Assembly: GCF_000189295.2 (NCBI RefSeq)
Contig: NC_016803.1
Span: 1,440,001 to 1,472,000, forward strand
Source of the DNA: Pseudodesulfovibrio mercurii
GTDB taxonomy: Bacteria; Desulfobacterota; Desulfovibrionia; Desulfovibrionales; Desulfovibrionaceae
DNA: 32,000 bases
Direction of reading: 5' to 3'
Shown here: piece after piece, positions 10,952 to 32,000 of the stretch
Position numbering within the stretch: position 1 is the first letter of the stretch
Layout of the letters: every line of letters starts with the position of its first letter
Notes under the pieces: model-generated
Told to the model about the DNA's origin: nothing
The model's database searches: none
Seen by the model: the letters and a program-made list of their open reading frames with translations, nothing else
Program-made: the position numbers and the translations under genes

Positions 10952-11998
10952 ATGTCTATTCAGGCCGTTATCAACCAGTTCAGATCGTTGAATAAAGACC
11001 AGCAGGAAGCCTGCGCCCGCCGCATCGAAGCCTATCTCCACGAGCACATCGAGGGGTTGAAGGGGTTCAGGGATACCATCGTCGAGGCGCGTTTCGCTGA
11101 TGGCAGGCACTGCCCCAGGTGCGGAAGCGTCGATGTGAAGCGTTGGGGCGCGTACAGCGACAAGAACGCCTACATGGCCCGCCAGCGGTACATGTGCAAG
11201 GATTGCGGACGCACCTTTACCGAACTGACGGGGACGCCGATGGCGGGGACCCACAAGCCCGAGCTGTGGTCCCGCTACATCCGATGCATGATCGAGGGGT
11301 TGAGCCTTCCCCGGACCGCCAAGCGGCTCGAGATTTCCATCCCCACGGCCTTCTATTGGCGGCACAAGATCCTGTGTGGCCTGAAGGCGTTGCATGCCCG
11401 GGATATCCTGTCCGGCATCGTCGAGATGGACGAAACCTTTTTCGTCGAATCCAACAAGGGAAGCCGCAACCTGAAGCACCGTCCTCCGAGGAAGCACCGG
11501 GGCGTCGCACGGAAACGCGGTATCTCGAACGAACAAGTGGCCGTGTTGGTGGGGCTCAGCCGCGATGGTGACGTGTTAAGCCATGCCGCTGGCCGGGGGC
11601 GCTTGTCGGCCGATCAGGTCGCGCGGGCCATCGGCGGCAACATCATGCCGGACAGCACGCTTGTCACGGACTCCATGTCCGGCTTCGCCACCTACGCCAA
11701 GCGCGAGGGCATCCGGCATGTCCGCTTGAACAGCCGTCAGGGCGTGTACACCCAGGGTGTCCACCACATCCAGCACGTCAACAACTACCACGCGGGTCTC
11801 AAGGAATGGATGCGCCGGTTCTGCGGCGTGGCCTCGAAGTTCCTCGACCACTACATGGCGTGGTTCAACCTGTTGCGGATCGTGACCAAGCTGGAATCCA
11901 AGAGCAGGCTGGAGGAATTCTACCGTCAGGCTTGCCGCAAGACCGCCTATGCGCCCGTCAGGGACTTCCGGGCATTCAAGGTCGGCCAGGAGCCGTAA
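10952..11998 (+). CDS. IS1595-family (ISXO2-like DDE) transposase with an N-terminal zinc ribbon
   Basis: CPRCGS...CKDCGRTF zinc ribbon, then IVEMDETFF (first catalytic D), LVTDSMSGF, and HIQHVNNYHAGLKEWMRRF..VASKFLDHYMAWF, typical of ISXO2-like transposases. AGGAGG lies upstream. Confidence 0.9.
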   Translation: MSIQAVINQFRSLNKDQQEACARRIEAYLHEHIEGLKGFRDTIVEARFADGRHCPRCGSVDVKRWGAYSDKNAYMARQRYMCKDCGRTFTELTGTPMAGTHKPELWSRYIRCMIEGLSLPRTAKRLEISIPTAFYWRHKILCGLKALHARDILSGIVEMDETFFVESNKGSRNLKHRPPRKHRGVARKRGISNEQVAVLVGLSRDGDVLSHAAGRGRLSADQVARAIGGNIMPDSTLVTDSMSGFATYAKREGIRHVRLNSRQGVYTQGVHHIQHVNNYHAGLKEWMRRFCGVASKFLDHYMAWFNLLRIVTKLESKSRLEEFYRQACRKTAYAPVRDFRAFKVGQEP

Positions 11999-20829: not shown

Positions 20830-21612
20830 GGGAAAAATCAGAAGTTGAAGCCGCTACGCGGCGATTCGGGATGACGGGGTTCGCTCCGCCCCGGCGCCCC
20901 CCCTTTGCGCGGTCGGACAGGGCCTGGTTCAATTCGTCCGGACGACGCTGCGCGTCCACCAAATCCGTCAGGCGTTCCTTCCCTGGTCCTGTCGCTGCCG
21001 CCCCCCTGGGACATGCTTCGCCGTCCCCCTTTCTCGCTCTCACCCTCGCCCGGAAGGGATGCCCTGCAAGGGCTCCCGCCCCAGCGCACCCCCTTGTCCG
21101 ATGCCGCTCCAAAACGTGGCAAAATAGCGTCTCCGAGAAGTGCCTATACGGTGATGTTATTGGCAATTCTCATGCCAAAAACAATGTCATACAATACAAA
21201 ATAAATCATTTTTTGACACGGTGAATTTATTCAGATAGACTCTGTCAATGATTACAGACGATGCAGATAAATGAACGTTGTTTTTGATCTGTAACAAAAA
21301 GATAGAGAGATAATACAGTAATAAATCAACTGTTGCAGTTGCCACAATCTGATACAAAAAATTCTTACAGCAGATTGTGACTGTATCATCGACAAAACAA
21401 CATCATCTTCGGCTAAATCGCCAATTGTACATGCCACAGACCTCGAAATGCCATAGCGGACAGAAAACCCTGTCCAGCCCCGGACTGCGCTCGTCCACCC
21501 CGTGCGGACTTCGCGACCGGGTTCCCCTCTCCTGATCCATTTCGACAGCCTTTTTTTCCGACACTCCCCGCCCCCGGCGAGGGAGCGCGTCGTTACTTTC
21601 AACGGAGCAACC

Positions 21613-22836
21613 ATGGGACAAATCACCGTAGAAAACCTGTACAAAATTTTTGGAAGCAAACCCCAGAAGGGGCTTGAGCTGCTCAAGCAGGGGCACGACA
21701 AGGCGTCGGTCCTGGAAAAGACCGGCATGACCGTGGGCGTGAACAACGCCTCCTTCACCATCGAAGACGGCGAGATATTCGTCATCATGGGGCTGTCCGG
21801 CTCGGGCAAGTCCACCATGGTGCGCATGCTCAACCGGCTCATCGAGCCCACGGCCGGGCGGGTCCTGGTCAACGGCGAGGACGTCACCGCCATGAATGAC
21901 GACGAGCTGGTCAAGTTCCGGCTGCACAACATGAGCATGGTCTTCCAGTCGTTCGCGCTCATGCCGCACCAGACCGTGTTGGACAACGCCGCCTTCGGCC
22001 TGGAGCTGGCCGGGGTGGACAAGGCCAAGCGGCACGAACGCGCCCGCGAGGCGCTGGCCCAGGTCGGCCTGACCGGATGGGAGGACCAGTACCCCAAGCA
22101 GTTGTCCGGCGGCATGCAGCAACGCGTGGGGCTGGCGCGCGGCCTGGCCGTGGACCCGGAAATCCTGCTCATGGACGAGGCCTTCTCGGCGCTCGATCCG
22201 CTCATCCGCACCGAGATGCAGGACGAGTTGCTCAAGCTCCAGGAGGAGCACCAGCGGACCATCGTGTTCATCTCCCACGACCTGGACGAAGCCCTGCGCA
22301 TCGGTGACCGCATCGCCATCATGGAGGGCGGCAACGTGGTCCAGGTGGGCGCACCGGACGAGATCCTGCAAAACCCGGCCAACGACTACGTGCGCGCCTT
22401 TTTTCGGGGCGTGGACCCCACCGGGGTCATCAGCGCGGGTGACATCGTGCGCGACACCCATCCGACCATCACCGTGACCAAGACCGGCGGCGGCCTGCGC
22501 GCGGCCCACGAAATCCTGAGCGGCAGCGAGCTGGAGTACGGATACGTGCTCGACTCCAAGCACCGCTTCCTGGGCGTGATCTCCACCGAGGGCATCCGCA
22601 ACGCGCTTGAGGCGGGGTTGCCGGAAAAGCCCCTCAGCCAGGTCTTCCTGACCGAGGCCCACGCCGTGCACCGCGACGACTCCATGCAGGACATCCTGCC
22701 GCTGGTGGCCGACGCGGTCTGGCCCATCCCGGTGGTGGACGACGCGGGCCGCTACCTCGGCGTGGTCTCCAAAAACCGTTTTCTCAAGACCCTGCACAAA
22801 ACCGAAGTCGCCCTGTCCGAAGGAGGTGACCAATAA
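21613..22836 (+). CDS. proV: Glycine betaine/proline ABC transporter ATPase with tandem CBS domains
   Basis: Walker A GLSGSGKST, signature LSGGMQQRVGLARGL, Walker B ILLMDEAFSALD, then a C-terminal CBS pair. The start MGQITVENLYKIFG follows GGAG. The upstream part of the track ORF is rejected. Confidence 0.9.
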   Translation: MGQITVENLYKIFGSKPQKGLELLKQGHDKASVLEKTGMTVGVNNASFTIEDGEIFVIMGLSGSGKSTMVRMLNRLIEPTAGRVLVNGEDVTAMNDDELVKFRLHNMSMVFQSFALMPHQTVLDNAAFGLELAGVDKAKRHERAREALAQVGLTGWEDQYPKQLSGGMQQRVGLARGLAVDPEILLMDEAFSALDPLIRTEMQDELLKLQEEHQRTIVFISHDLDEALRIGDRIAIMEGGNVVQVGAPDEILQNPANDYVRAFFRGVDPTGVISAGDIVRDTHPTITVTKTGGGLRAAHEILSGSELEYGYVLDSKHRFLGVISTEGIRNALEAGLPEKPLSQVFLTEAHAVHRDDSMQDILPLVADAVWPIPVVDDAGRYLGVVSKNRFLKTLHKTEVALSEGGDQ

Positions 22837-23666
22837 TGTTCGACAACGCGATCATCCCCCTGGACCACTGGGTCTCGGACGCCGTGGAATGGCTGGTGGA
22901 CAACTACCGTGAATTTTTCCAGATGCTCAAATGGCCCGTGGACCGGCTGCTGACCGGCTTCGAGCACGGCCTGACCAGCGTGCACCCGCTCGTCGTCATC
23001 GGCGTGGTCTGCCTCCTGGCCTGGAAGTTCTCGGGCAAGCGGCTGGCCCTCTTCTCCCTGGCCTCCATGCTCCTGGTCGGCTTCCTCGGCCTGTGGGAGG
23101 AGACCATGATCACCCTGGCCATGGTCCTGTCCTCCGTGGTCATCTGCGCCGTGATCGGCATCCCGCTCGGGATCATGTCCGGGCGCAGCGAACGCTTCGA
23201 GGCCGGGCTGCGGCCGGTGCTCGACGCCATGCAGACCACGCCCGCCTTCGTCTACCTCGTGCCCATCGTCATGCTCTTTTCCGTGGGCAACGTGGCCGGC
23301 GTGCTGGCGACCATCATCTTCGCCCTGCCCCCCATTATCCGGCTGACAGGACTGGGCATCCGCCAGGTCCACCCGGAGCTGGTCGAGGCGGCCCAGGCCT
23401 TCGGGGCCACCCGCTGGCAGGTCCTCGTCAAGGTCCAGATTCCCCTGGCCATGCCGACCATCCTGGCCGGACTCAACCAGACCATCATGATGGCCCTGTC
23501 CATGGTCGTCATCGCCGCGCTCATCGGCGCGGGCGGGCTCGGCTCGCCGGTCATCCTGGGGCTGAACACCCTGGACATCGGCCGCGCCGTGGTCGGCGGC
23601 CTGGGCATCGTGCTCATGGCCATCGTCCTGGACCGCATCACCCAGTCAATGGCCCGAAAGAAATAA
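22836..23666 (+). CDS. proW: Glycine betaine/proline ABC transporter permease
   Basis: The ATG overlaps the proV stop (TAATG). IPLDHWVSDAVEWLVDNY N terminus and an EAA-type loop (LVEAAQAFGATRWQVLVKVQIPLAMPTILAG). Confidence 0.9.
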   Translation: MFDNAIIPLDHWVSDAVEWLVDNYREFFQMLKWPVDRLLTGFEHGLTSVHPLVVIGVVCLLAWKFSGKRLALFSLASMLLVGFLGLWEETMITLAMVLSSVVICAVIGIPLGIMSGRSERFEAGLRPVLDAMQTTPAFVYLVPIVMLFSVGNVAGVLATIIFALPPIIRLTGLGIRQVHPELVEAAQAFGATRWQVLVKVQIPLAMPTILAGLNQTIMMALSMVVIAALIGAGGLGSPVILGLNTLDIGRAVVGGLGIVLMAIVLDRITQSMARKK

Positions 23667-23691
23667 CCGCAATCGAATCCGAGGAGGTTCC

Positions 23692-24720
23692 ATGAAACTG
23701 ATGAAACTCACCCTGACCGCCCTGTTCGCGGTCCTGATCGCGACCGGCGCGTTCGCCATGGACATGCAGCCCGGCAAGGGCGTCACCGTCCAACCCGCGC
23801 GCGCCACCTGGAACACCGGCTTCTTCCAGGAAGCCCTGGTCCGCAAGGGGCTGGAGACGCTCGGCTACACCGTCAAGAAACCGCGCGACCTGTCCAACCC
23901 CATCTTCTACAAGTCCGTGACGCTCGGCGACGTGGACTACTGGACCAACGGCTGGTTCCCCATGCACGACGCGCAGCTTCCCAAGAACTTCGACCAGAAG
24001 GCGCGGAAGATCGGCTTCGTGGCCAAGGCGGGAGGCATGCAGGGCTACCTGGTGTCCAAGCGCGACGCCGACAAGTACGGCATCAAGTCCCTGGACGACT
24101 TCAAGCGGCCCGAGGTCATGAAGGCCTTCGACTCCAACGGCGACGGCAAGGCCGACCTGACCGCCTGCCCGCCGGGCTGGGGCTGCGAAAAGGTCATCGC
24201 CCACCACATGAAGGTCTACGGCCTCGATGACTACATCAACCCGGTCAAGGCCTCCTACGAGGCGGGCATGGCCGCTGCGCTTGGCGAGTACAAGTCCGGC
24301 AAGCCGGTCTTCTTCTACACCTGGACGCCCAACTGGACCGTGTTCAAGTTCAAGCCCGGCAAGGACGTGGTCTGGATCAACGTGCCCGAGATCAAGCCCA
24401 CCGAGGCCCAGGCCGCCAACGCCGACCGCATGACCGTGTCCGGCGTGGAGGGCGCGGTCTCCGACCCGCTCAAGGCCGGCTTCGTGGTCTCGGACATCCG
24501 CGCCGTGGCCAACAAGCAGTTCCTCGAAAAGAACCCGGCCGCCGCCAGGTTCCTCGAACTCTTCACCCTGCCGTTAGCCGACATCAGCGCCCAGAACACG
24601 CGCATGAATCAAGGCGAGAAGTCCGACAAGGACATTGAGAAGCATGCGGAGGAGTGGATCGCCAACAACAAGGCGACCTGGGACGGCTGGCTGCAAGCCG
24701 CCCGAGAAGCCGCCAAATAG
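23692..24720 (+). CDS. proX: Glycine betaine/proline substrate-binding protein
   Basis: Signal peptide MKLMKLTLTALFAVLIATGAFA. TWNTGFFQEAL, DYWTNGWFPMH and PPGWGCEKVIAHH are typical of ProX/OpuAC. Third gene after proVW. Confidence 0.9.
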   Translation: MKLMKLTLTALFAVLIATGAFAMDMQPGKGVTVQPARATWNTGFFQEALVRKGLETLGYTVKKPRDLSNPIFYKSVTLGDVDYWTNGWFPMHDAQLPKNFDQKARKIGFVAKAGGMQGYLVSKRDADKYGIKSLDDFKRPEVMKAFDSNGDGKADLTACPPGWGCEKVIAHHMKVYGLDDYINPVKASYEAGMAAALGEYKSGKPVFFYTWTPNWTVFKFKPGKDVVWINVPEIKPTEAQAANADRMTVSGVEGAVSDPLKAGFVVSDIRAVANKQFLEKNPAAARFLELFTLPLADISAQNTRMNQGEKSDKDIEKHAEEWIANNKATWDGWLQAAREAAK

Positions 24721-24746
24721 CTCTGCATTGTCCGGCGTAAAGATGC

Positions 24747-24776
24747 GGCGGCCCCCCTGGGGGGCCGCCTTTTTTT
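24747..24776 (+). terminator. Intrinsic terminator of proVWX
   Basis: GGCGGCCCCCC-T-GGGGGGCCGCC followed by TTTTTTT. Confidence 0.8.
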
Positions 24777-24791
24777 GCGCAGGGGGGCGGC

Positions 24792-24902
24792 TTCCGAGAG
24801 CGGACCATCTGCACATTTTCCCCGGCCGCGCCAATCATCACGTAGACAGCTACGCTGCGGTTGCCGCGGCCGGGGAAAATGCACAGCTGACCCACTCTCG
24901 AA
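24792..24902. repeat. Long imperfect inverted repeat (about 38-nt arms, 34-nt spacer). The left arm overlaps copy 2 (24785-24814) of the 30-nt repeat seen at 16019-16048
   Basis: The perfect 17-bp core CATTTTCCCCGGCCGCG (24814-24830) pairs with CGCGGCCGGGGAAAATG (24865-24881). The outer arms TTCCGAGAGCGGACCATCTG and CAGCTGACCCACTCTCGAA pair with a few mismatches. Confidence 0.65.
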
Positions 24903-24973
24903 CGCCTTGTGCCTGCGCGCTAAAAGAACCGCTGTCGGGTGCTCCGCACCCGAATTCCTCCAAAAAGATGAAG

Positions 24974-25014
24974 AAAAAAGTCTTCGACTCAATGTTGAGT
25001 CGAAGAACTTTTTT
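24974..25014. terminator. Bidirectional terminator-like hairpin in the proX / sigma-54 activator convergent spacer
   Basis: AAAAAA-GTCTTCGACTCAA-TG-TTGAGTCGAAGAAC-TTTTTT (one bulged nucleotide). Confidence 0.6.
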
Positions 25015-25076
25015 ATTATGAACCGCACCGCGAAGCGGCAATAAAAAGTTTAGGAAGGTGAAGGGGATGGGGGTCC

Positions 25077-25133
25077 GGGGGAAGGGGGAGAGGAAAGCCC
25101 TTTTTTCAAAGGGTTCCCTCTCCCCCTTCCCCC
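25077..25133 (-). terminator. Very stable G/C-run hairpin just downstream of the sigma-54 activator gene (no U-tract)
   Basis: GGGGGAAGGGGGAGAGG...CCTCTCCCCCTTCCCCC is a 17-bp perfect outer stem, with an inner CCCTTT/AAAGGG pairing. It lies 18 nt from the stop at 25151. Confidence 0.45.
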
Positions 25134-25150
25134 GGCCGCCGGAGGCGTTG

Positions 25151-27670
25151 CTAGTCTCCGGTCAGTTCGTAGCGGGTGGAGGGGCCTTTGCCTTTCTTGA
25201 TCAGGAGGCCGCGTTTGACGAAGTCCTGGAGGTCGTAGATGGCGGTGCGTGTGGGCAGGTTGCCGCCGACCAGGTCCTGGTACTGTTTGCGGGTGATGGT
25301 GCCCTGTCTGCGGATGACGTCCCAGGCCTCTTTCTGGCGCGAGTTGAGGCCGGTATCGGTCTCGGCCGGGGCGGATGGGGCCGGGGCGGCGGACGGCGCG
25401 TCCGGGGACGGGTGGTGGTTGCCGTTCGTTATGGCCTCGGCGGGCTGGGATTGGGTCGGCCAGGCGGAAAAGTCGCTTTCCAGGCGGATTTCCTCGGGCT
25501 GGATGACGTCGGTTTCGGCCATGACCGCGGCGCGGGTGATGCAGTTGACCAGTTCGCGGACGTTGCCGGGCCAGTCGTGGGACACGAGCTTGGCCAGGGC
25601 TCCCTTGCTCAGGTCCAGGTGCTCGCGCCCGGCCAGGGCCTCGGCCTGCTTGAGGTAGTAGACGGCCAGCAGCGGGATGTTCTCACGGTTCTCGCGCAGG
25701 GCGGGCGTGTTGATGGAGATGACCTTGAGCCGGTAGTAGAGGTCCTCGCGGAAGGTCCGGTCCTCGATGAGGGACTGGATGTCCACGTTGGTGGCGGCCA
25801 GGATGCGCACGTCCACGGTGACCTCGCGGTCGCTGCCGAGCGGCTTGATCTTGCGCGAGGCGAGCGCCCGGAGCAGTGACTGCTGGACCTTGGGCGAGGC
25901 GGACTGGATCTCGTCCAGGAAGAGAATGCCGCCGTCGGCCTCGACGAACGCGCCGTTGCGGTCTTCCTTGGCCTCGGAGAAGGCCCCCTTGACGTGGCCG
26001 AACAGGGCGTCGAGGAGCAGGTTCTCGTCCAGGGCGCCGCAGTTGATGGAGATGAACGGTTTTTCCGCCCGGCTGGAATGGGCATGGACGGCCTCGGCCA
26101 CCAGCTGCTTGCCGGTGCCGGTCTCGCCCGCGATGAGCACGTCCACATCCACCTGGGCGGCCTTGAGGATGTTGACCTTGAGGTTGGCCGTGGCCGAACC
26201 CACGCCGACGATCTCGGGGATGCGGCTCAGTTCGTTCTCCACCAGCAGCTCGCGCTCGCGGTCCAGGGTGGCTCGCTCGCGCTTGTTCACGTTGAGGATG
26301 GCCTCGTCCTTGGCCTGGATCTCGAGCACCTGCTGTTTGACCCGACGGATGATGTTGTTGATGGAATCCTGGAACACGGTGATGTCGTAGCCGCTGTAGG
26401 GAAGGTGAATCTCCTCCATTTCCTCCAACGAATTCAAGGTGTTCATTCGCGCCGCCAACTCACGTATGGGCTTGGTCAGGATGCGCCCGAAGAGGAAGAT
26501 GAGGACTGAGATGACCACGATGCCGCCGATGGTCACGAAGAACATGACGTCCATGTTCTTGTAGCCCGCGATGATCGGCAGCTGGCTGCGGTCCACGAAG
26601 ACCACGCCGCCGTAAATGGTGGGCGGCCCGGCCGGATCGGCCTTGAAGTAGACCGGGGCGTAGCTGAAATAGTGGAAGTCCACGCCGGACTCCTGGGGAT
26701 GGGGCTCGGACACGCGGGCCAGACCGTTCTCGCCCTTGTCCATGGCGGCCACGGCCTCCCAGTACAGGGTGTGCCGCTCGTTGGGCCGGAAGGCGGCCGC
26801 GTTGCCGGGTTTGCCCAGGGAGCCGTCGAAGCCCTCCCGGGCCAGGAAGGTGGTCAGCTCGCCGTCCTGCTTGTCGTAGTCCTCGGACTGAAAGAGTATC
26901 CACCCGTCATGATTCAGGAAATAGCTGAAGCGCAGTTCGTCGCTCCGGGGATAGGCCCACAGGGGGGACTTGCGCGAGTTGTACCAGGAGAGGATATTGC
27001 GCAGGGTGGTCGCCTCCACGGACAGGAAGAGCAGGCCCGGAGGCTCCTCGCCGTTGCCCGGACAGGCGGTATAGAAGCGGACCACGTTGGCGGTCTTGAA
27101 ACGGTTGGCGCTGCCCTCGCTGGGCATGGGATAGGACACGTCGAGGACGTCCGAGACGATCACCCGGCCCGGAGTGAGGGAGCCAAGGCGGTCCAGTTCG
27201 GCAAAGGGATTGGGCCGGACCCGGTCCAGGGCGTCCGGGGCGACGGCCCGGACGTCGTCGCCCTGCCGGACCAGGACCACGGGCTCCCCGCCCGAGGCAG
27301 GGAGATAGCAGAGTTCGAGGTACGGCTTGCCGCCCGCCTTGATGAGCCGGGCGAACTCGTCGCGCAGGGAAGCCCCGCCGGTGGGCCCACCGGCGAAGAA
27401 AAGCAGGTCCGTCCGACAGCCGTCCAGGTACTGCTCCATCTCGTGGGCCACGGCCATGGTGTTCTGGCGCACGGTGCGGCCCAGGGCGATGTCGATGAAC
27501 TCGTCCGAGACCCGGTAGGAGGCCCAGCCCGTGAACAGGAGGATGCCCACGATGGACGGCATCAGGGCCAGGAGCAGTTTGCCCCGCAACCCGAGCCTGC
27601 GTACCAGGCCGGGCAGATGCCGGCGCATCCAGTCCGACATGCGGGAACCTGAAGTGGGTGTAGACGCCAT
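25151..27670 (-). CDS. Membrane-anchored sigma-54-dependent transcriptional activator: TM - ~320 aa extracytoplasmic Cache-like domain - TM - linker - AAA+ domain - C-terminal winged-helix domain
   Basis: AAGGAGGAG SD. TM helices at aa 31-52 and 374-396. Walker A GETGTGKQLVAEAVH, Walker B GGILFLDEI, GAFSEA in place of GAFTGA (25970-25987), R-finger region WPGNVRELVN. The C terminus LNSRQKEAWDVIRRQGTITRKQYQDLVGGNLPTRTAIYDLQDFVKRGLL is wHTH-like rather than Fis-like. Confidence 0.85.
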   Translation of the reverse strand: MASTPTSGSRMSDWMRRHLPGLVRRLGLRGKLLLALMPSIVGILLFTGWASYRVSDEFIDIALGRTVRQNTMAVAHEMEQYLDGCRTDLLFFAGGPTGGASLRDEFARLIKAGGKPYLELCYLPASGGEPVVLVRQGDDVRAVAPDALDRVRPNPFAELDRLGSLTPGRVIVSDVLDVSYPMPSEGSANRFKTANVVRFYTACPGNGEEPPGLLFLSVEATTLRNILSWYNSRKSPLWAYPRSDELRFSYFLNHDGWILFQSEDYDKQDGELTTFLAREGFDGSLGKPGNAAAFRPNERHTLYWEAVAAMDKGENGLARVSEPHPQESGVDFHYFSYAPVYFKADPAGPPTIYGGVVFVDRSQLPIIAGYKNMDVMFFVTIGGIVVISVLIFLFGRILTKPIRELAARMNTLNSLEEMEEIHLPYSGYDITVFQDSINNIIRRVKQQVLEIQAKDEAILNVNKRERATLDRERELLVENELSRIPEIVGVGSATANLKVNILKAAQVDVDVLIAGETGTGKQLVAEAVHAHSSRAEKPFISINCGALDENLLLDALFGHVKGAFSEAKEDRNGAFVEADGGILFLDEIQSASPKVQQSLLRALASRKIKPLGSDREVTVDVRILAATNVDIQSLIEDRTFREDLYYRLKVISINTPALRENRENIPLLAVYYLKQAEALAGREHLDLSKGALAKLVSHDWPGNVRELVNCITRAAVMAETDVIQPEEIRLESDFSAWPTQSQPAEAITNGNHHPSPDAPSAAPAPSAPAETDTGLNSRQKEAWDVIRRQGTITRKQYQDLVGGNLPTRTAIYDLQDFVKRGLLIKKGKGPSTRYELTGD

Positions 27671-27773
27671 GAAACTCCTCCTTCGCGCGGTTGCGGCGGC
27701 CCGAAAAAACTGTCCCCCGCCTCATACATTTTTGCCGTTATGCCGCCCGCGCCCCCTTTGTCAAACTCTTTTC

Positions 27774-27788
27774 GGCACGATGGTTGCT
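27774..27788 (+). promoter_or_regulatory. Sigma-54 (-24/-12) promoter upstream of the Cache histidine kinase gene
   Basis: cGGCACG-ATGG-TTGCT versus the consensus TGGCACG-N4-TTGCW. GG to GC spacing is exactly 10 nt. It lies about 110 nt upstream of ATG 27901 and is divergent from a sigma-54 activator gene. Confidence 0.6.
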
Positions 27789-27900
27789 AAATACTCCCCG
27801 GCGTCATCATGCAAGGCGTAAAATTTGCGCAATTTTTTAACTAGTTGGAATAAATATTATTTTAACAAACATCTTGCAAAAAACATCAGGCAGACACACC

Positions 27901-29577
27901 ATGGCCAAGCAAAGCTCCTCTTGCGGGATACACAGATTGCTGCTCATTTCCATGATCGTCATTCCGGCGATCCCCCTACTCCTCTCGGTCGCCATAGGAT
28001 TTTATTCCTTTGCCGGGGAGTCCAAACGCTTCGCCGTCTCCTCCATCCGTCAGGCCGCCGTGGACCGGACCCAGCTCATCGACGAGTTCCTCCACGAGCG
28101 GCGCAGCGACCTGGAGTCGTACCTCGCCCTGCTGACCGAGGACGCCCTGAGCGGGCCCAAGGCGCAGGCGGAGGTGGCCGCCTGGCTGCGCACCGGCGGG
28201 CAGGTCTTCCAGGACATGGGCCTGATCGATCCGCAGGGGCGGCACGCGGCCTATGCCGGGCCCTTCGGCCTGGCCGACAAGGACTACAGCGACACGGACT
28301 GGTACAAGGAGACGCGGGAGAGCGGCTATTTCATCAGCGACGTGTTTCTCGGCTACCGCAAGGTGCCCCACTTCATCGTGGCCGTGGCCAGACGCATAAA
28401 CGGCCAGGTCTGGATACTCCGGGCCACGGTCAATCCCACGGTCTTCGGCAACATGGTCAACGCGCCGGGCATCGGGGACACCGGCGAGGCGTATATCCTC
28501 AACCGCGAGGGGCTGTTCCAGACCGGACGCCGGTCCGGCGGCGACCTGCTCGAACACGACGACTACGCCTACCCGGCCCAGGACGAGAATCTTGTTTCCT
28601 TCACAGGCTCGGATGGCGGCGAGGACTACCTGTTCGCCTCGGCCCGTCTCAACGACGGCAATTGGCGGCTCATTGTCCGCCAGAAGGAGGAGGAGGCCTT
28701 TCATGCCGTCGTCATGGCGGGCTACACGGTCATCTTCGTGCTGCTCTGCGGCGGGGCGGTCATCGTGGTCCTCGCACTCTTCGTCAGTCGTCGGTTGTCC
28801 GAGACCCTGCACGGCCAGGCCGAGGCGGTCAGCAAGCTGGAAGGCCAGCTGCTTCAGGCCGCCCGCCTGGCCGAACTGGGCGAGATGGCCGCGGGCTTCG
28901 CCCACGAAATCAACAACCCGCTCCAGATCATGAAGACCGACCTGGCCCTGCTGGAACTGACCCTCAAGGACGTGACCGACGAGTGCTCCAACCGCGAGGC
29001 GTGCGCCGAGCTCAAGGAAATCGCCGAGCAGTTCCAGATCCAGATCGGCCGGTGCGCGGCCATCACCCGCGAGATACTTCGTTTCGGGCGGCAGGACGCC
29101 CCCCAGGTCCAGGACATGGACCTGGCCGAGTTCCTGCCCAAGGTCGGCGACATGGTCCGCAACAAGGCCCAGGTCAACGGCATCAACGTGACCTGCGAGG
29201 TGGCCCCGGACATCCCCACGGTCCTGGCCGACCCCGGCCAGCTGCAGCAGGTCATGATCAACCTGCTGAACAACGCCATCCACGCGGTGGTGGACCGGCA
29301 CGGGGCCAAGGGCGGCCGCATCGAGGTGGTTGCCCGCCGCGACGACCGCAATCAGGCGGAGATCACCGTGACCGACAACGGCAGCGGCATCAATCAGGAG
29401 AGTCTGTCGAAGATATTCATGCCCTTCTTCACCACCAAGGCGCCCGGCCAGGGCACGGGGTTGGGCCTGTCCGTGTGCCATTCCATCATCGACTCCCTGG
29501 GCGGGGAGCTGACCGTGGCCAGCACCAAGGGCGAAGGCACGACCTTCACCGTTCGTATCCCCGGCAAGAGTGCGTAA
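27901..29577 (+). CDS. Sensor histidine kinase with an extracytoplasmic Cache-type domain (no cognate response regulator adjacent)
   Basis: TM (LLLISMIVIPAIPLLLSVAIGFY), a roughly 250-aa sensor domain (DTDWYKETRESGYFISDVF..., GEAYILNREG), a second TM, H-box GFAHEINNPL, and N/G boxes NLLNNAIHAV, DNGSGI and GTGLGLS. I prefer ATG 27901 over the track's TTG at 27874. Confidence 0.85.
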   Translation: MAKQSSSCGIHRLLLISMIVIPAIPLLLSVAIGFYSFAGESKRFAVSSIRQAAVDRTQLIDEFLHERRSDLESYLALLTEDALSGPKAQAEVAAWLRTGGQVFQDMGLIDPQGRHAAYAGPFGLADKDYSDTDWYKETRESGYFISDVFLGYRKVPHFIVAVARRINGQVWILRATVNPTVFGNMVNAPGIGDTGEAYILNREGLFQTGRRSGGDLLEHDDYAYPAQDENLVSFTGSDGGEDYLFASARLNDGNWRLIVRQKEEEAFHAVVMAGYTVIFVLLCGGAVIVVLALFVSRRLSETLHGQAEAVSKLEGQLLQAARLAELGEMAAGFAHEINNPLQIMKTDLALLELTLKDVTDECSNREACAELKEIAEQFQIQIGRCAAITREILRFGRQDAPQVQDMDLAEFLPKVGDMVRNKAQVNGINVTCEVAPDIPTVLADPGQLQQVMINLLNNAIHAVVDRHGAKGGRIEVVARRDDRNQAEITVTDNGSGINQESLSKIFMPFFTTKAPGQGTGLGLSVCHSIIDSLGGELTVASTKGEGTTFTVRIPGKSA

Positions 29578-32000
29578 GACCGTCCTCCTCCCGGGACGGG
29601 ACCCCATCGGGGGACGGGGCTTCGGACCCGTCCCCCGCCATTTTTCCCAGAGCCTCGGCGGTCATCTTGCCGATCTCGTCCAGGTAGGCCCCGTAGCGGG
29701 TCAGGTAGAAGGACAGCCCCTTGGCGAAGTTGCGGCCCACCAGCCCGTCCACGAAGAGCATGGACACGGACTGTTCCTCGCGCAAAATCTGCTGCGAGGC
29801 CAGGAACACGGCAAGCTCGTCCTCGGACATGGCCTCCAGGGCCCGGCGCAGGGCCTCGCGGGCGCGCGGCTTGTAGGCCATGATGTAGAGCAGGTCCAGG
29901 GCGTTGGCGATGACCTCGGGCACGTGGTTGAAGTTCGACTCCCGTGAGAAGGCGATGAACTCGGCGGGCCGGTTGAGCATGCCGAGCATGTCCCTGGTGG
30001 GGAAGGCGATCTCCAGCCGCGAGTAGATCTCGAAGACCTGGCGCAGCTTCTCGGAGTAGTCCCAGCGGCGCATGGCGATGTTCCGCCTGCGGTCGGCGAA
30101 CCCCTCAATGACTCCGGCCACGCAGTCCGAGGCGAGCTTGGAGATGACCGCCGCCCAGAGCTGCAGCACGGCCAGGGGATCGGTCGAGCCCGCCAGGATG
30201 AGCATGCCCTCCACGCCCCAGTTGAAGAGCATGGCGATGGGGATGGACAGGACGCTGCGGAAGAAGTTGGCTGCGGCCGCCTCCCTGGGCAGCCCCCGGA
30301 CCACGTTGTGGCTCGAGATGTACACCCCGTTGGTCAGGGCCATGATGGAGTAGAGCAGCAGCGGGTTGGTGGCCGTGGTCACGCCGAAGCCCTTGTCCAG
30401 GACCACGGACTTGCACAGCCAGTCCAGCAGGGGCACGGAGAAGCCGGTGTAGAGCAGGGACTCGGAGATACGCTCCCAGTCCAGATAATCGTTCCAGGCC
30501 AGGTAGGCCGAGCGCCGGAACCCGCCCCCGCCAAGCACGGACTGGATGACGTTGCGCAGGCCGGTGATGGAGAACCAGATGATCCCCCCGAAATAGGCCA
30601 GGACCCACCAATCCTTGGTCAGGTAGAAGGTCAGGAAGGCGGGTATGAACCCGGCCAGGATCTTGAACACGTTCTTGAGCCCGGTGTTCAGGTGGCCGAG
30701 GGAGGGACGGCGCTTGCAGGAATCCTCGGGCTCGAACAGGGACAGCCCGTTGCCCTGCCGCCGCTTGCCGCCCAGGGCGATGACGTTGCCGCCCGCCTCG
30801 GTCACGGCATAGCCGTCCACGCGCCAGCGGCTGCACGTACGGCAGACCAGCCTTCGCAGGCCAGAGACCTGGGCGGCCATGTGGACCAGCCCGCTCCACC
30901 AGCCCCGGCCCTGCCGGGGCATGACGTACTCGTTGGACCGGATGGCCGTGCCCTGCACCGGGATGCGGTCTGCGGGGCGCAGCCGGGCGGCCTCGCGCTG
31001 GGCGCGCAGGGGCAGGGTCTCAAGGACCGCGAAGCCCATGCCGTGGGTCCGGGTGGAACGCCCGGTGGAACCCGAGCCAATGCTCGTGCCCAGGGGCAGC
31101 CGCTTGTAGAATTCGAGGAGCCGGTCGAACCGCTCCAGGATGCCTTCGAGGACGCGCAGCCTGTCCTCGGACTCTTCCCCGCCCCGCTCGCGGACGGAGT
31201 CCATGCACCCCCGGATGAGGCGCTTGAGCTTGACCGCGTTCTGCTCGTTCAGGGCCTGCTGCAACTGGCTGAAGGGCATGCGCAGTAGGGTCTGTCCCGG
31301 CTCCAGATGCTTGGTGTTGAAGACCTCCAGGTGGGTGATCCGCCCCTGGCACTGGAACAGAATCTCCAGGGCGTCCTCCAGTTCGAGGTCGGCCAGGATC
31401 AGGGTCAGGTGGCTGGAGTGGGCGGCCTTGCGCAGCCTTGAAGACAGCTCGGCCGGGGTCAGGGAGAGCAGGTCGGGCATGCCCCCGGCCCGCGGCGCGT
31501 CCGGGTTCGGAATGTCCGTGTTCTCCTCCGGGGAGAGGTAGCGGGCCACCAGGGTGTCCACGTCCAGGGCGTCCAGGGACTCCACCTGCATGGCGATGGC
31601 CGCCTTGGCGTCGTAGTCGGCCTCGTCGAAGCCCCGGCGCAGGGCGGTCACCCGCTCCTCGAAGAGCGGCATGGCCAGGCAGTGGATGTAGTTGCCCAGG
31701 TGCAGCACGGACGGCTGCTCCACGCCTGCGGAGGCAGCCATTTCATCATAAGATACCGGCGGGAGCAGGACCCCGAATTCCTTGTGAATGGACTGACGGT
31801 GGCGGGTGTTGAAGGCCTCGATCACGGCCCGGACGTATGCGGACCGTGCGGCGTGCACCTCCCGGCCCCGTTCCATGAGCTCGCGCACGGCGTCCACCCG
31901 AAACAGCCCCTCTATGTCGCAGTCGTCGCGCAATCCGCCCGGACACCAGACGATCTTGACGAACCGACCCCGGTGCATTGCCCGGTATTCGATGCCGATG
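29546..32000 (-). CDS. Large (>810 aa) multi-pass membrane protein of unknown function; the frame stays open to the window edge, so it is probably 5'-truncated
   Basis: Soluble N-terminal region of about 420 aa, then at least 6 hydrophobic helices (FKILAGFIPAFLTFYL, WVLAYFGGIIWFSITGL, LLLYSIMALTNGVYI, FFRSVLSIPIAMLFNWGV, LQLWAAVISKLASDCVAGVI), then a soluble C-terminal region of about 170 aa. No stop occurs upstream of the Met at 31978, and no SD is present there. Confidence 0.6.
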   Translation of the reverse strand, partial: IGIEYRAMHRGRFVKIVWCPGGLRDDCDIEGLFRVDAVRELMERGREVHAARSAYVRAVIEAFNTRHRQSIHKEFGVLLPPVSYDEMAASAGVEQPSVLHLGNYIHCLAMPLFEERVTALRRGFDEADYDAKAAIAMQVESLDALDVDTLVARYLSPEENTDIPNPDAPRAGGMPDLLSLTPAELSSRLRKAAHSSHLTLILADLELEDALEILFQCQGRITHLEVFNTKHLEPGQTLLRMPFSQLQQALNEQNAVKLKRLIRGCMDSVRERGGEESEDRLRVLEGILERFDRLLEFYKRLPLGTSIGSGSTGRSTRTHGMGFAVLETLPLRAQREAARLRPADRIPVQGTAIRSNEYVMPRQGRGWWSGLVHMAAQVSGLRRLVCRTCSRWRVDGYAVTEAGGNVIALGGKRRQGNGLSLFEPEDSCKRRPSLGHLNTGLKNVFKILAGFIPAFLTFYLTKDWWVLAYFGGIIWFSITGLRNVIQSVLGGGGFRRSAYLAWNDYLDWERISESLLYTGFSVPLLDWLCKSVVLDKGFGVTTATNPLLLYSIMALTNGVYISSHNVVRGLPREAAAANFFRSVLSIPIAMLFNWGVEGMLILAGSTDPLAVLQLWAAVISKLASDCVAGVIEGFADRRRNIAMRRWDYSEKLRQVFEIYSRLEIAFPTRDMLGMLNRPAEFIAFSRESNFNHVPEVIANALDLLYIMAYKPRAREALRRALEAMSEDELAVFLASQQILREEQSVSMLFVDGLVGRNFAKGLSFYLTRYGAYLDEIGKMTAEALGKMAGDGSEAPSPDGVPSREEDGLTHSCRGYER

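Follow-up and report, generated by a model that had tools for sequence, protein, structure and literature searches.

In the present study, we analysed a 32,000-nucleotide (nt) stretch of the Pseudodesulfovibrio mercurii genome (hereafter the window) and found that its gene at 25151-27670, on the minus strand, encodes an 839-amino-acid (aa) protein that, judging from its domains and genomic context, is likely to be a membrane-integral, one-component bacterial enhancer-binding protein (bEBP) of the DVU0151 family. In the proposed topology, a cytoplasmic N-terminus would be followed by a first transmembrane segment (TM1), a periplasmic double-Cache (dCache) domain, a second transmembrane segment (TM2), a cytoplasmic HAMP-like and coiled-coil linker, a sigma-54 AAA+ domain and a C-terminal winged helix. 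The protein probably senses something extracellular and activates the neighbouring sensor-kinase gene. An initial annotation, made from the nucleotide sequence, had described an atypical, membrane-bound, one-component sigma-54 activator with this order of domains (TM, Cache-like, TM, linker, AAA+ with a GAFSEA loop, and winged helix-turn-helix, wHTH). The open reading frame is real (it opens with ATG, and AAGGAGGAG lies just 5' of the start codon), and the architecture was upheld by profile searches, structure prediction and fold search. The proposed role agrees with a divergent sigma-54 promoter that is kept in 65 of 81 related loci. The features regarded as atypical are all real, but their combination has a precedent, since the GAFSEA loop, the winged helix and the divergent promoter are known for the DVU0151 family (Kazakov et al. 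2015, PMC4641369).

Membrane segments, sensor and linker

For comparison, relatives were sampled at one genome per species, which gave 80 full-length relatives (81 proteins with that of the window). A family alignment (A1) was made of 35 members, from which the tail (A2) and the periplasmic region (A3) were excised. The relatives, all within Desulfobacterota, reach far past the Desulfovibrionaceae and include members from Desulfobacterales, Desulfarculaceae, Syntrophobacterales, Desulfomicrobium, Solidesulfovibrio, Nitratidesulfovibrio and Desulfosudis.

Kyte-Doolittle hydropathy with a 19-residue window has two strong maxima in the protein of the window, 2.08 at aa ~30-52 (TM1, 27515-27583; this and all other parts of the protein are encoded on the minus strand) and 2.87 at aa ~374-398 (TM2, 26477-26551). 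Two transmembrane segments were found at matching positions in 81 of 81 proteins, the first at about aa 25, in line with the earlier claim that two helices bracket the sensor. The putative cytoplasmic N-tail (aa 1-29) is rich in arginine, with six Arg and one Lys before TM1, and K/R/R follow TM2. Because these flanking charges obey the positive-inside rule, an orientation with the N-terminus inside and the loop outside is suggested.

The region between the two segments (aa ~53-373, 26552-27514) is predicted to be a periplasmic double-Cache sensor of the dCache_1 kind. The AlphaFold2 model of aa 50-375 (predicted local distance difference test, pLDDT, 88; predicted template modelling score, pTM, 0.88) consists of a long N-terminal helix and two alpha/beta (PAS-like) modules, and Foldseek matched it to the dCache ligand-binding domains of chemoreceptors and histidine kinases (TlpA, TlpC, PctD, TlpQ and HK1S, E ~3e-9). 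Thus the Cache-like domain of about 320 aa proposed before can be specified as a double Cache. The Pfam profile dCache_1 (PF02743) matched 4 of 27 members (best E 4.5e-6, all under the curated cutoff), and a Pfam scan of the whole protein of the window gave no Cache match. Sequence-profile searches of the sensor and of the C-terminal tail against PDB sequences gave matches at chance level only, and thus a fold search was needed for both.

The segment after TM2 (aa ~399-486, 26213-26476) is HAMP-like and continues as a coiled-coil linker. Five of six members matched HAMP (PF00672) weakly (E 0.006-0.015; 16-17 bits, where the cutoff is 25); in another relative (P0125), the match reached E 2.6e-4 and 21.7 bits (cutoff 25), and a further one (P0105) carries a precomputed HAMP annotation. 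The coiled-coil linker that the initial annotation placed after TM2 is therefore present, but it seems to start with a HAMP-like segment, as these weak, sub-threshold matches suggest. Since the N-terminal region appears to be organized as TM-dCache-TM-HAMP, the family would be membrane-integral.

Within the sensor, the linker between the two modules is the most conserved part (0.79), followed by the proximal (0.59) and the distal module (0.54). It is the distal module of dCache domains that usually binds the ligand. Of 1.84 billion proteins, a profile of the sensor retrieved only 176 representatives, and those of full length are nearly all 800-970 aa long, with the sensor at aa ~47-370. When matches of odd length were checked as possible new architectures, they turned out to be truncated bEBPs, and the one match outside the bEBPs, a dCache-HAMP histidine kinase (P0251), was the weakest of all.

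AAA+ core and L1 loop

The sigma-54 interaction AAA+ domain and its lid occupy aa ~487-731 (25478-26212). Pfam identified Sigma54_activat (PF00158) at aa 491-653 (E 3e-60; 203 bits, where the cutoff is 20.2) and AAA_lid_14 at aa 659-731. The core matched ZraR with E 1e-64 and could be aligned without gaps to ZraR and NifA; therefore, LFGHEKGAFTGA corresponds to the positions of LFGHVKGAFSEA, and GAFSEA (aa 562-567) stands in place of GAFTGA in the L1 loop, exactly at 25970-25987 as previously assigned. The ATPase motifs are intact: Walker A (GETGTGK, 26108-26128), Walker B (LFLDEI, with D586-E587 at 25910-25915), the arginine finger (FREDLYYRL) and sensor II (GNVRELxN) are invariant in the 35-member alignment.

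GAFSEA keeps the G, A, F and final A of GAFTGA, and has Ser for Thr and Glu for Gly. Among the 81 proteins, the L1 loop reads GAFTEA in 45, GAFSDA in 14, GAFSEA in 11, GAFTDG in four, GAYTEA in four, GAFTDS in two and WAFTEA in one. Position 5 is thus acidic in all members and Gly in none, with the family pattern GAF(T/S)(E/D)(A/S/G). The single WAFTEA loop, from Nitratidesulfovibrio sp. HK-II (locus L038, 7836-10607), has Trp instead of the otherwise invariant first Gly.

The C-terminal winged helix

The AAA+ domain is followed by a Pro/Ala/Ser-rich linker (aa ~732-775, 25346-25477), which had been noted before, can be seen in the sequence and varies more than any other stretch of the family alignment. 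The remaining tail (aa ~776-836, 25163-25345) is predicted to be a wHTH. In the AlphaFold2 model of aa 770-839 (pLDDT 92), three helices are followed by a beta-hairpin, and Foldseek matched the model to AspA, DsrD, the wHTH of a Fic protein, TrmBL2, CadC, MarR and Fur (TM-scores 0.68-0.79, probability 1.0). Pfam scans of individual tails gave weak matches, mostly to winged-helix families. The Fis-type profile HTH_8 (PF02954) had no match at E<=1 in the whole protein, nor at E<=10 in 28 tails, and precomputed PF02954 annotations are absent from all family members and present in unrelated bEBP matches. These results bear out the description of the tail as wHTH-like and not Fis-type. The residues R808-T-A-x-Y-D813 of the recognition helix are invariant in the 35-member alignment. 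Together with the enriched TTGCGCAA sites described below, this points indirectly to a tail that may recognize particular DNA sequences.

Divergent promoter and predicted target genes

A sigma-54 promoter (-24/-12) element, CGGCACGATGGTTGCT, is located at 27773-27788 on the plus strand, 103 nt from the start of the activator gene; the divergent gene, which it is predicted to drive, has its ATG (27901) about 110 nt further on. This gene (27901-29577, plus strand) encodes a sensor histidine kinase with dCache_1, HisKA and HATPase_c domains. A divergent sigma-54 promoter is present 70-390 nt from the bEBP start in 65 of the 81 loci, whereas the expected number is ~0.01 per locus. In addition, a TTGTCAA block beside the -24 box is conserved in 17 loci; on the activator strand it reads TTGACA-N16-CATAAC (27737-27764, minus strand) and may serve the activator gene itself as a sigma-70 promoter, arranged back-to-back with the sigma-54 one. 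A strict sigma-70 scanner called no promoter in 24700-27950, and this reading is thus tentative.

The genes behind the sigma-54 promoter differ between lineages. In 53 loci (type A context), it drives an operon that encodes, besides an optional universal stress protein (Usp), a small membrane protein, a TauE/TSUP transporter and another two small proteins. In the relatives of the window, it drives the kinase alone, and in a sister group (L005, 2524-7789; L007, L008, L019, L021 and L048), a dCache kinase, a CheY-like REC protein, a REC-CBS protein and a DASS/SLC13-type transporter. Since the clade of the window retains the kinase only, the response regulator of this kinase would be encoded elsewhere. 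In a neighbour-joining tree, all kinase-linked activators, including that of the window, form one clade nested within the TSUP-linked majority. Because of this nested position, the divergent target appears to have changed from the TSUP operon to the kinase in this clade. A duplicated sensor common to the bEBP and the neighbouring kinase was considered and rejected, as BLASTP gave no meaningful similarity. In many of the type A loci (L016-L080), a PPDK_N/PEP-utilizer protein of ~870 aa and a REC protein adjoin the activator gene on its downstream side, which suggests a larger conserved module.

Candidate binding sites

The analysis is least secure with regard to the binding site, for which two candidates are put forward. 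Candidate site 1 (27820-27837) is a near-perfect 18-bp palindrome, AAAATTTGCGCAATTTTT, with the core TTGCGCAA, in the leader of the kinase gene. Candidate site 2 (27691-27724) is an inverted repeat, TTGCGGCGG-N-CCGCCTCA, about 50-80 nt upstream of the -24 box. The core of site 1 agrees with the motif predicted for DVU0151, which resembles TTTTTCGCGCAAAA (PMC4641369). Across the loci, TTGCGCAA-like sites (<=1 mismatch) were observed 23 times at -150 to -51 from the -24 box, compared with 3.6 expected. A further enrichment lies immediately downstream of the promoter, but six of the sites there are the promoter's own TTGCT-CAA overlap. The only such site of the window is the palindrome at 27820-27837, downstream of the promoter. 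At its position, the block TTTTGCG(C/T)(A/G)ATTTTTTAAC is kept in Pseudodesulfovibrio relatives with 65-88% protein identity, while the flanks diverge. Site 2 has the classical upstream position, and only the three closest loci (the window, L001 and L003) share its arms, which enclose a spacer that varies. Mapping the positions of plain CGCAAA/TTTGCG gave results too scattered to define a site, and only the 8-mer palindrome was positionally enriched.

We also considered the leader palindrome as an RNA hairpin or attenuator and rejected this reading as poorly supported; the folding of the leader is not unusually stable (z-score of the minimum free energy -1.4). A second conserved block of the leader, TCTTGCAAAAAACATCAGGCAGA, lies at 27864-27893, and at the same position in L001-L009, just before the ribosome-binding site of the kinase gene. 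It holds another (T/C)GCAAAA half-site and overlaps a 14-nt imperfect direct repeat (27864-27891).

Comparison with known systems

Kazakov et al. (BMC Genomics 16:919) computationally catalogued 37 bEBPs of Desulfovibrio vulgaris Hildenborough, in which DVU0151 is the only one with the L1 sequence GAFSEA and the only one without a Fis-type HTH (PMC4641369). Its orthologs (DvMF_2340, Dde_0697, Dbac_2039 and DMR_42210) match the winged-helix superfamily SSF46785, and its long conserved N-terminal region was labelled "unknown sensing domain". The gene is divergent from the sigma-54 promoter of its predicted target operon, DVU0150-DVU0146, which encodes a hypothetical membrane protein, a TSUP transporter, two lipoproteins and a hypothetical protein (PMC4641369) and corresponds to our type A context. 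Thus, three of the four features that had seemed atypical were already reported for this family. The protein of the window shares with it the GAFSEA-type loop, the lack of a Fis HTH, the wHTH tail, the long N-terminal region, the divergent sigma-54 promoter and the TTTGCGC-type motif core. It differs in that its divergent target is a dCache histidine kinase and not a TSUP operon of the DVU0150-0146 type, and in that the N-terminal region is here resolved as TM-dCache-TM with a HAMP-like segment after it. In the literature search, DVU0151 was not the subject of any later paper, and no other searchable paper contained GAFSEA. A review of bEBPs from 2020 describes soluble activators with a helix-bundle HTH, and mentions neither membrane-bound nor winged-helix bEBPs. 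As far as the literature could be searched, the membrane-integral dCache-HAMP input of the DVU0151 family is therefore apparently newly described here, along with the constancy of the architecture and of the acidic L1 loop in 81 proteins, the promoter in 65 of 81 loci and the derived, kinase-linked clade.

Compared with canonical bEBPs (NtrC, ZraR, NifA, PspF and FleQ), the AAA+ core is 40-48% identical over ~240 aa and has all catalytic motifs, and the promoters are likewise of the -24/-12 type. In contrast to these activators, the protein is predicted to be membrane-integral with an extracytoplasmic dCache domain instead of REC, GAF, PAS or V4R, has Glu and not Gly at position 5 of L1, and carries a wHTH and not the Fis-type HTH_8. 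Membrane-bound one-component regulators are represented by ToxR and CadC, which have one transmembrane helix and an N-terminal OmpR-type wHTH and act with sigma-70. The protein of the window resembles them in having a periplasmic sensor and a cytoplasmic winged-helix DNA-binding domain in one polypeptide, so that the target DNA would have to reach the membrane; unlike them, it has two transmembrane helices, its wHTH is C-terminal and its sigma-54 module is driven by ATP. Its predicted input, TM1-dCache-TM2 and a HAMP-like segment, resembles that of dCache-HAMP histidine kinases and chemoreceptors (TlpA, PctD and HK1S-Z16), whereas its output is an AAA+ activator and not a kinase or methyl-accepting domain.

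Other features of the window

The stop codon of the activator gene is followed by a bidirectional terminator-like hairpin (24981-25006), located between this gene and opuAC. The latter belongs to an OpuA-like glycine-betaine ABC operon (21502-24720, plus strand; ATPase-CBS, permease and OpuAC binding protein) that converges on the activator gene and is followed by a GC-rich terminator at 24747-24769. In the low-GC spacer upstream of this operon, a second sigma-54-like element, TGGCATGAGAATTGCC, is directed leftwards (21162-21177, minus strand). On the other side, the gene for an 810-aa protein (29546-31978, minus strand) converges on the kinase gene with an overlap of ~30 nt. This protein has hydrophobic segments in its centre and matched nothing in Pfam, NCBIfam or the PDB sequences, and its gene is syntenic with the kinase and activator genes in 10 related loci. 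An IS1595-family transposase gene (DDE_Tnp_IS1595 and zinc ribbon, 10952-11998, plus strand) adjoins lower-GC stretches at ~12-14 kb.

Proposed mechanism and alternative explanations

The mechanism that we favour, and consider to have a good chance of being correct as a whole, runs from a signal at the dCache domain through a membrane-bound AAA+ ring to the opening of a promoter by sigma-54 RNA polymerase (E-sigma54) and expression of the kinase gene. A periplasmic signal would be bound by the dCache domain and relayed via TM2 and the HAMP/coiled-coil segment, which would gate the assembly or activity of the AAA+ ring while this is still anchored in the membrane. The winged helix would hold the protein near the divergent promoter, at a probable site with the core TTGCGCAA. 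The GAFSEA L1 loops could then engage E-sigma54 at 27773-27788, so that the promoter is opened and the dCache histidine-kinase gene is turned on; in this way, one sensor would license the expression of a second sensor. A more specific version, in which the ring is active while anchored by twelve transmembrane helices, is fed by dCache and HAMP, uses an acidic L1 and is bound to the leader downstream of the promoter, thereby licensing a sensor kinase in a cascade from a one- to a two-component system, is offered tentatively, and we would sooner expect at least one of its parts to fail.

Several points weigh against the favoured mechanism. Glu or Asp replaces Gly at position 5 of GAFTGA in every member, and in NtrC, a change of this Gly to Lys abolishes activation. 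For this reason, competence for sigma-54 is here deduced from context only. The predicted topology is based on hydropathy and flanking charges. The enrichment of TTGCGCAA is in part compositional, because the background is mostly coding sequence, and the best palindrome of the window has an unusual position downstream of the promoter, where it could equally be a roadblock or the site of another factor. Every member of the family is known from computation alone. The assignment to the DVU0151 family was made by shared features, by context and by Nitratidesulfovibrio and Solidesulfovibrio members with a DVU0150-type operon, with DVU0151 itself compared by its published description. The Nitratidesulfovibrio member of locus L038, which served as a proxy for DVU0151, is 44-46% identical to the protein of the window over aa ~24-836, and a search with a Nitratidesulfovibrio member gave no match named Hildenborough. 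The published site strings of DVU0151, DvMF and DMR were absent next to the gene in the loci examined, which come from other species, and a direct string link to the published sites is thus lacking.

One alternative takes the acidic loop at face value: GAFSEA would be unable to remodel sigma-54, and the protein would be a sigma-54-independent regulator, either a repressor or roadblock on the leader palindrome or a sigma-70 activator comparable to NtrC/TyrR-type proteins that lack GAFTGA. The invariable lack of the canonical Gly, the downstream position of the best palindrome and the failure of most GAFTGA mutants to activate (2020 bEBP review) are all consistent with this. However, 65 of 81 loci, spread over a phylum, keep a sigma-54 promoter beside the gene, the loop retains its Phe and Thr/Ser, all ATPase motifs are preserved, and several other bEBPs of D. 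vulgaris with Asp, Glu or His at position 5 have sigma-54 regulons (PMC4641369), so that we regard sigma-54 independence as improbable. The membrane anchoring raises a different question, namely whether the membrane form is inactive and a signal-triggered proteolysis frees a soluble AAA+-wHTH part to act as an ordinary bEBP. Such a release would avoid bringing the promoter to the membrane for a tethered hexamer, and the long linker could contain a cleavage site. Yet the conserved HAMP-like/coiled-coil linker is typical of conformational signalling, and a protease gene is conserved nowhere in the examined neighbourhoods. AAA+ hexamers with two transmembrane helices per subunit are feasible, as FtsH illustrates. 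Release by proteolysis, for which the analysis gave no support, is the explanation to which we give the least credence, as a very improbable one.

It is also conceivable that the dCache domain reports not on a free ligand but on a partner membrane protein, as in the co-sensing of CadC-LysP and DcuS-DctA. The partner might be the TSUP transporter or the small membrane protein in most members, and the neighbouring kinase in the clade of the window. In agreement with this idea, the targets are always membrane proteins (the small membrane protein, small108, with TSUP, or the dCache kinase with or without the DASS transporter), the distal module is no better conserved than the inter-module linker and the proximal module, and the sensor subtype is nearly confined to this bEBP family. 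The fold, on the other hand, is a standard dCache with its best matches among ligand-bound chemoreceptor domains, and the sensors of the bEBP and the kinase are unrelated in sequence. Co-sensing by way of a partner, and likewise the particular partners named, thus seem unlikely, if less so than the two preceding explanations. Co-sensing is a refinement of the favoured mechanism and not a contradiction to it.

If the anchored-ring cascade is true, it would be a mode of enhancer-dependent activation outside the searchable bEBP literature. This family apparently connects a sigma-54 AAA+ engine directly with both an extracytoplasmic Cache/HAMP input and a DNA-binding fold of another type, and it maintains a non-Gly residue at position 5 of GAFTGA across a phylum. 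If the members are active, hexamer assembly and DNA looping at the membrane, the gating of an AAA+ ring by HAMP and the sequence freedom of the sigma-54-contacting loop would become addressable. For the sulfate reducers, the family hints at unexplored environmental inputs that may govern TSUP and DASS transporters and a sensor kinase.

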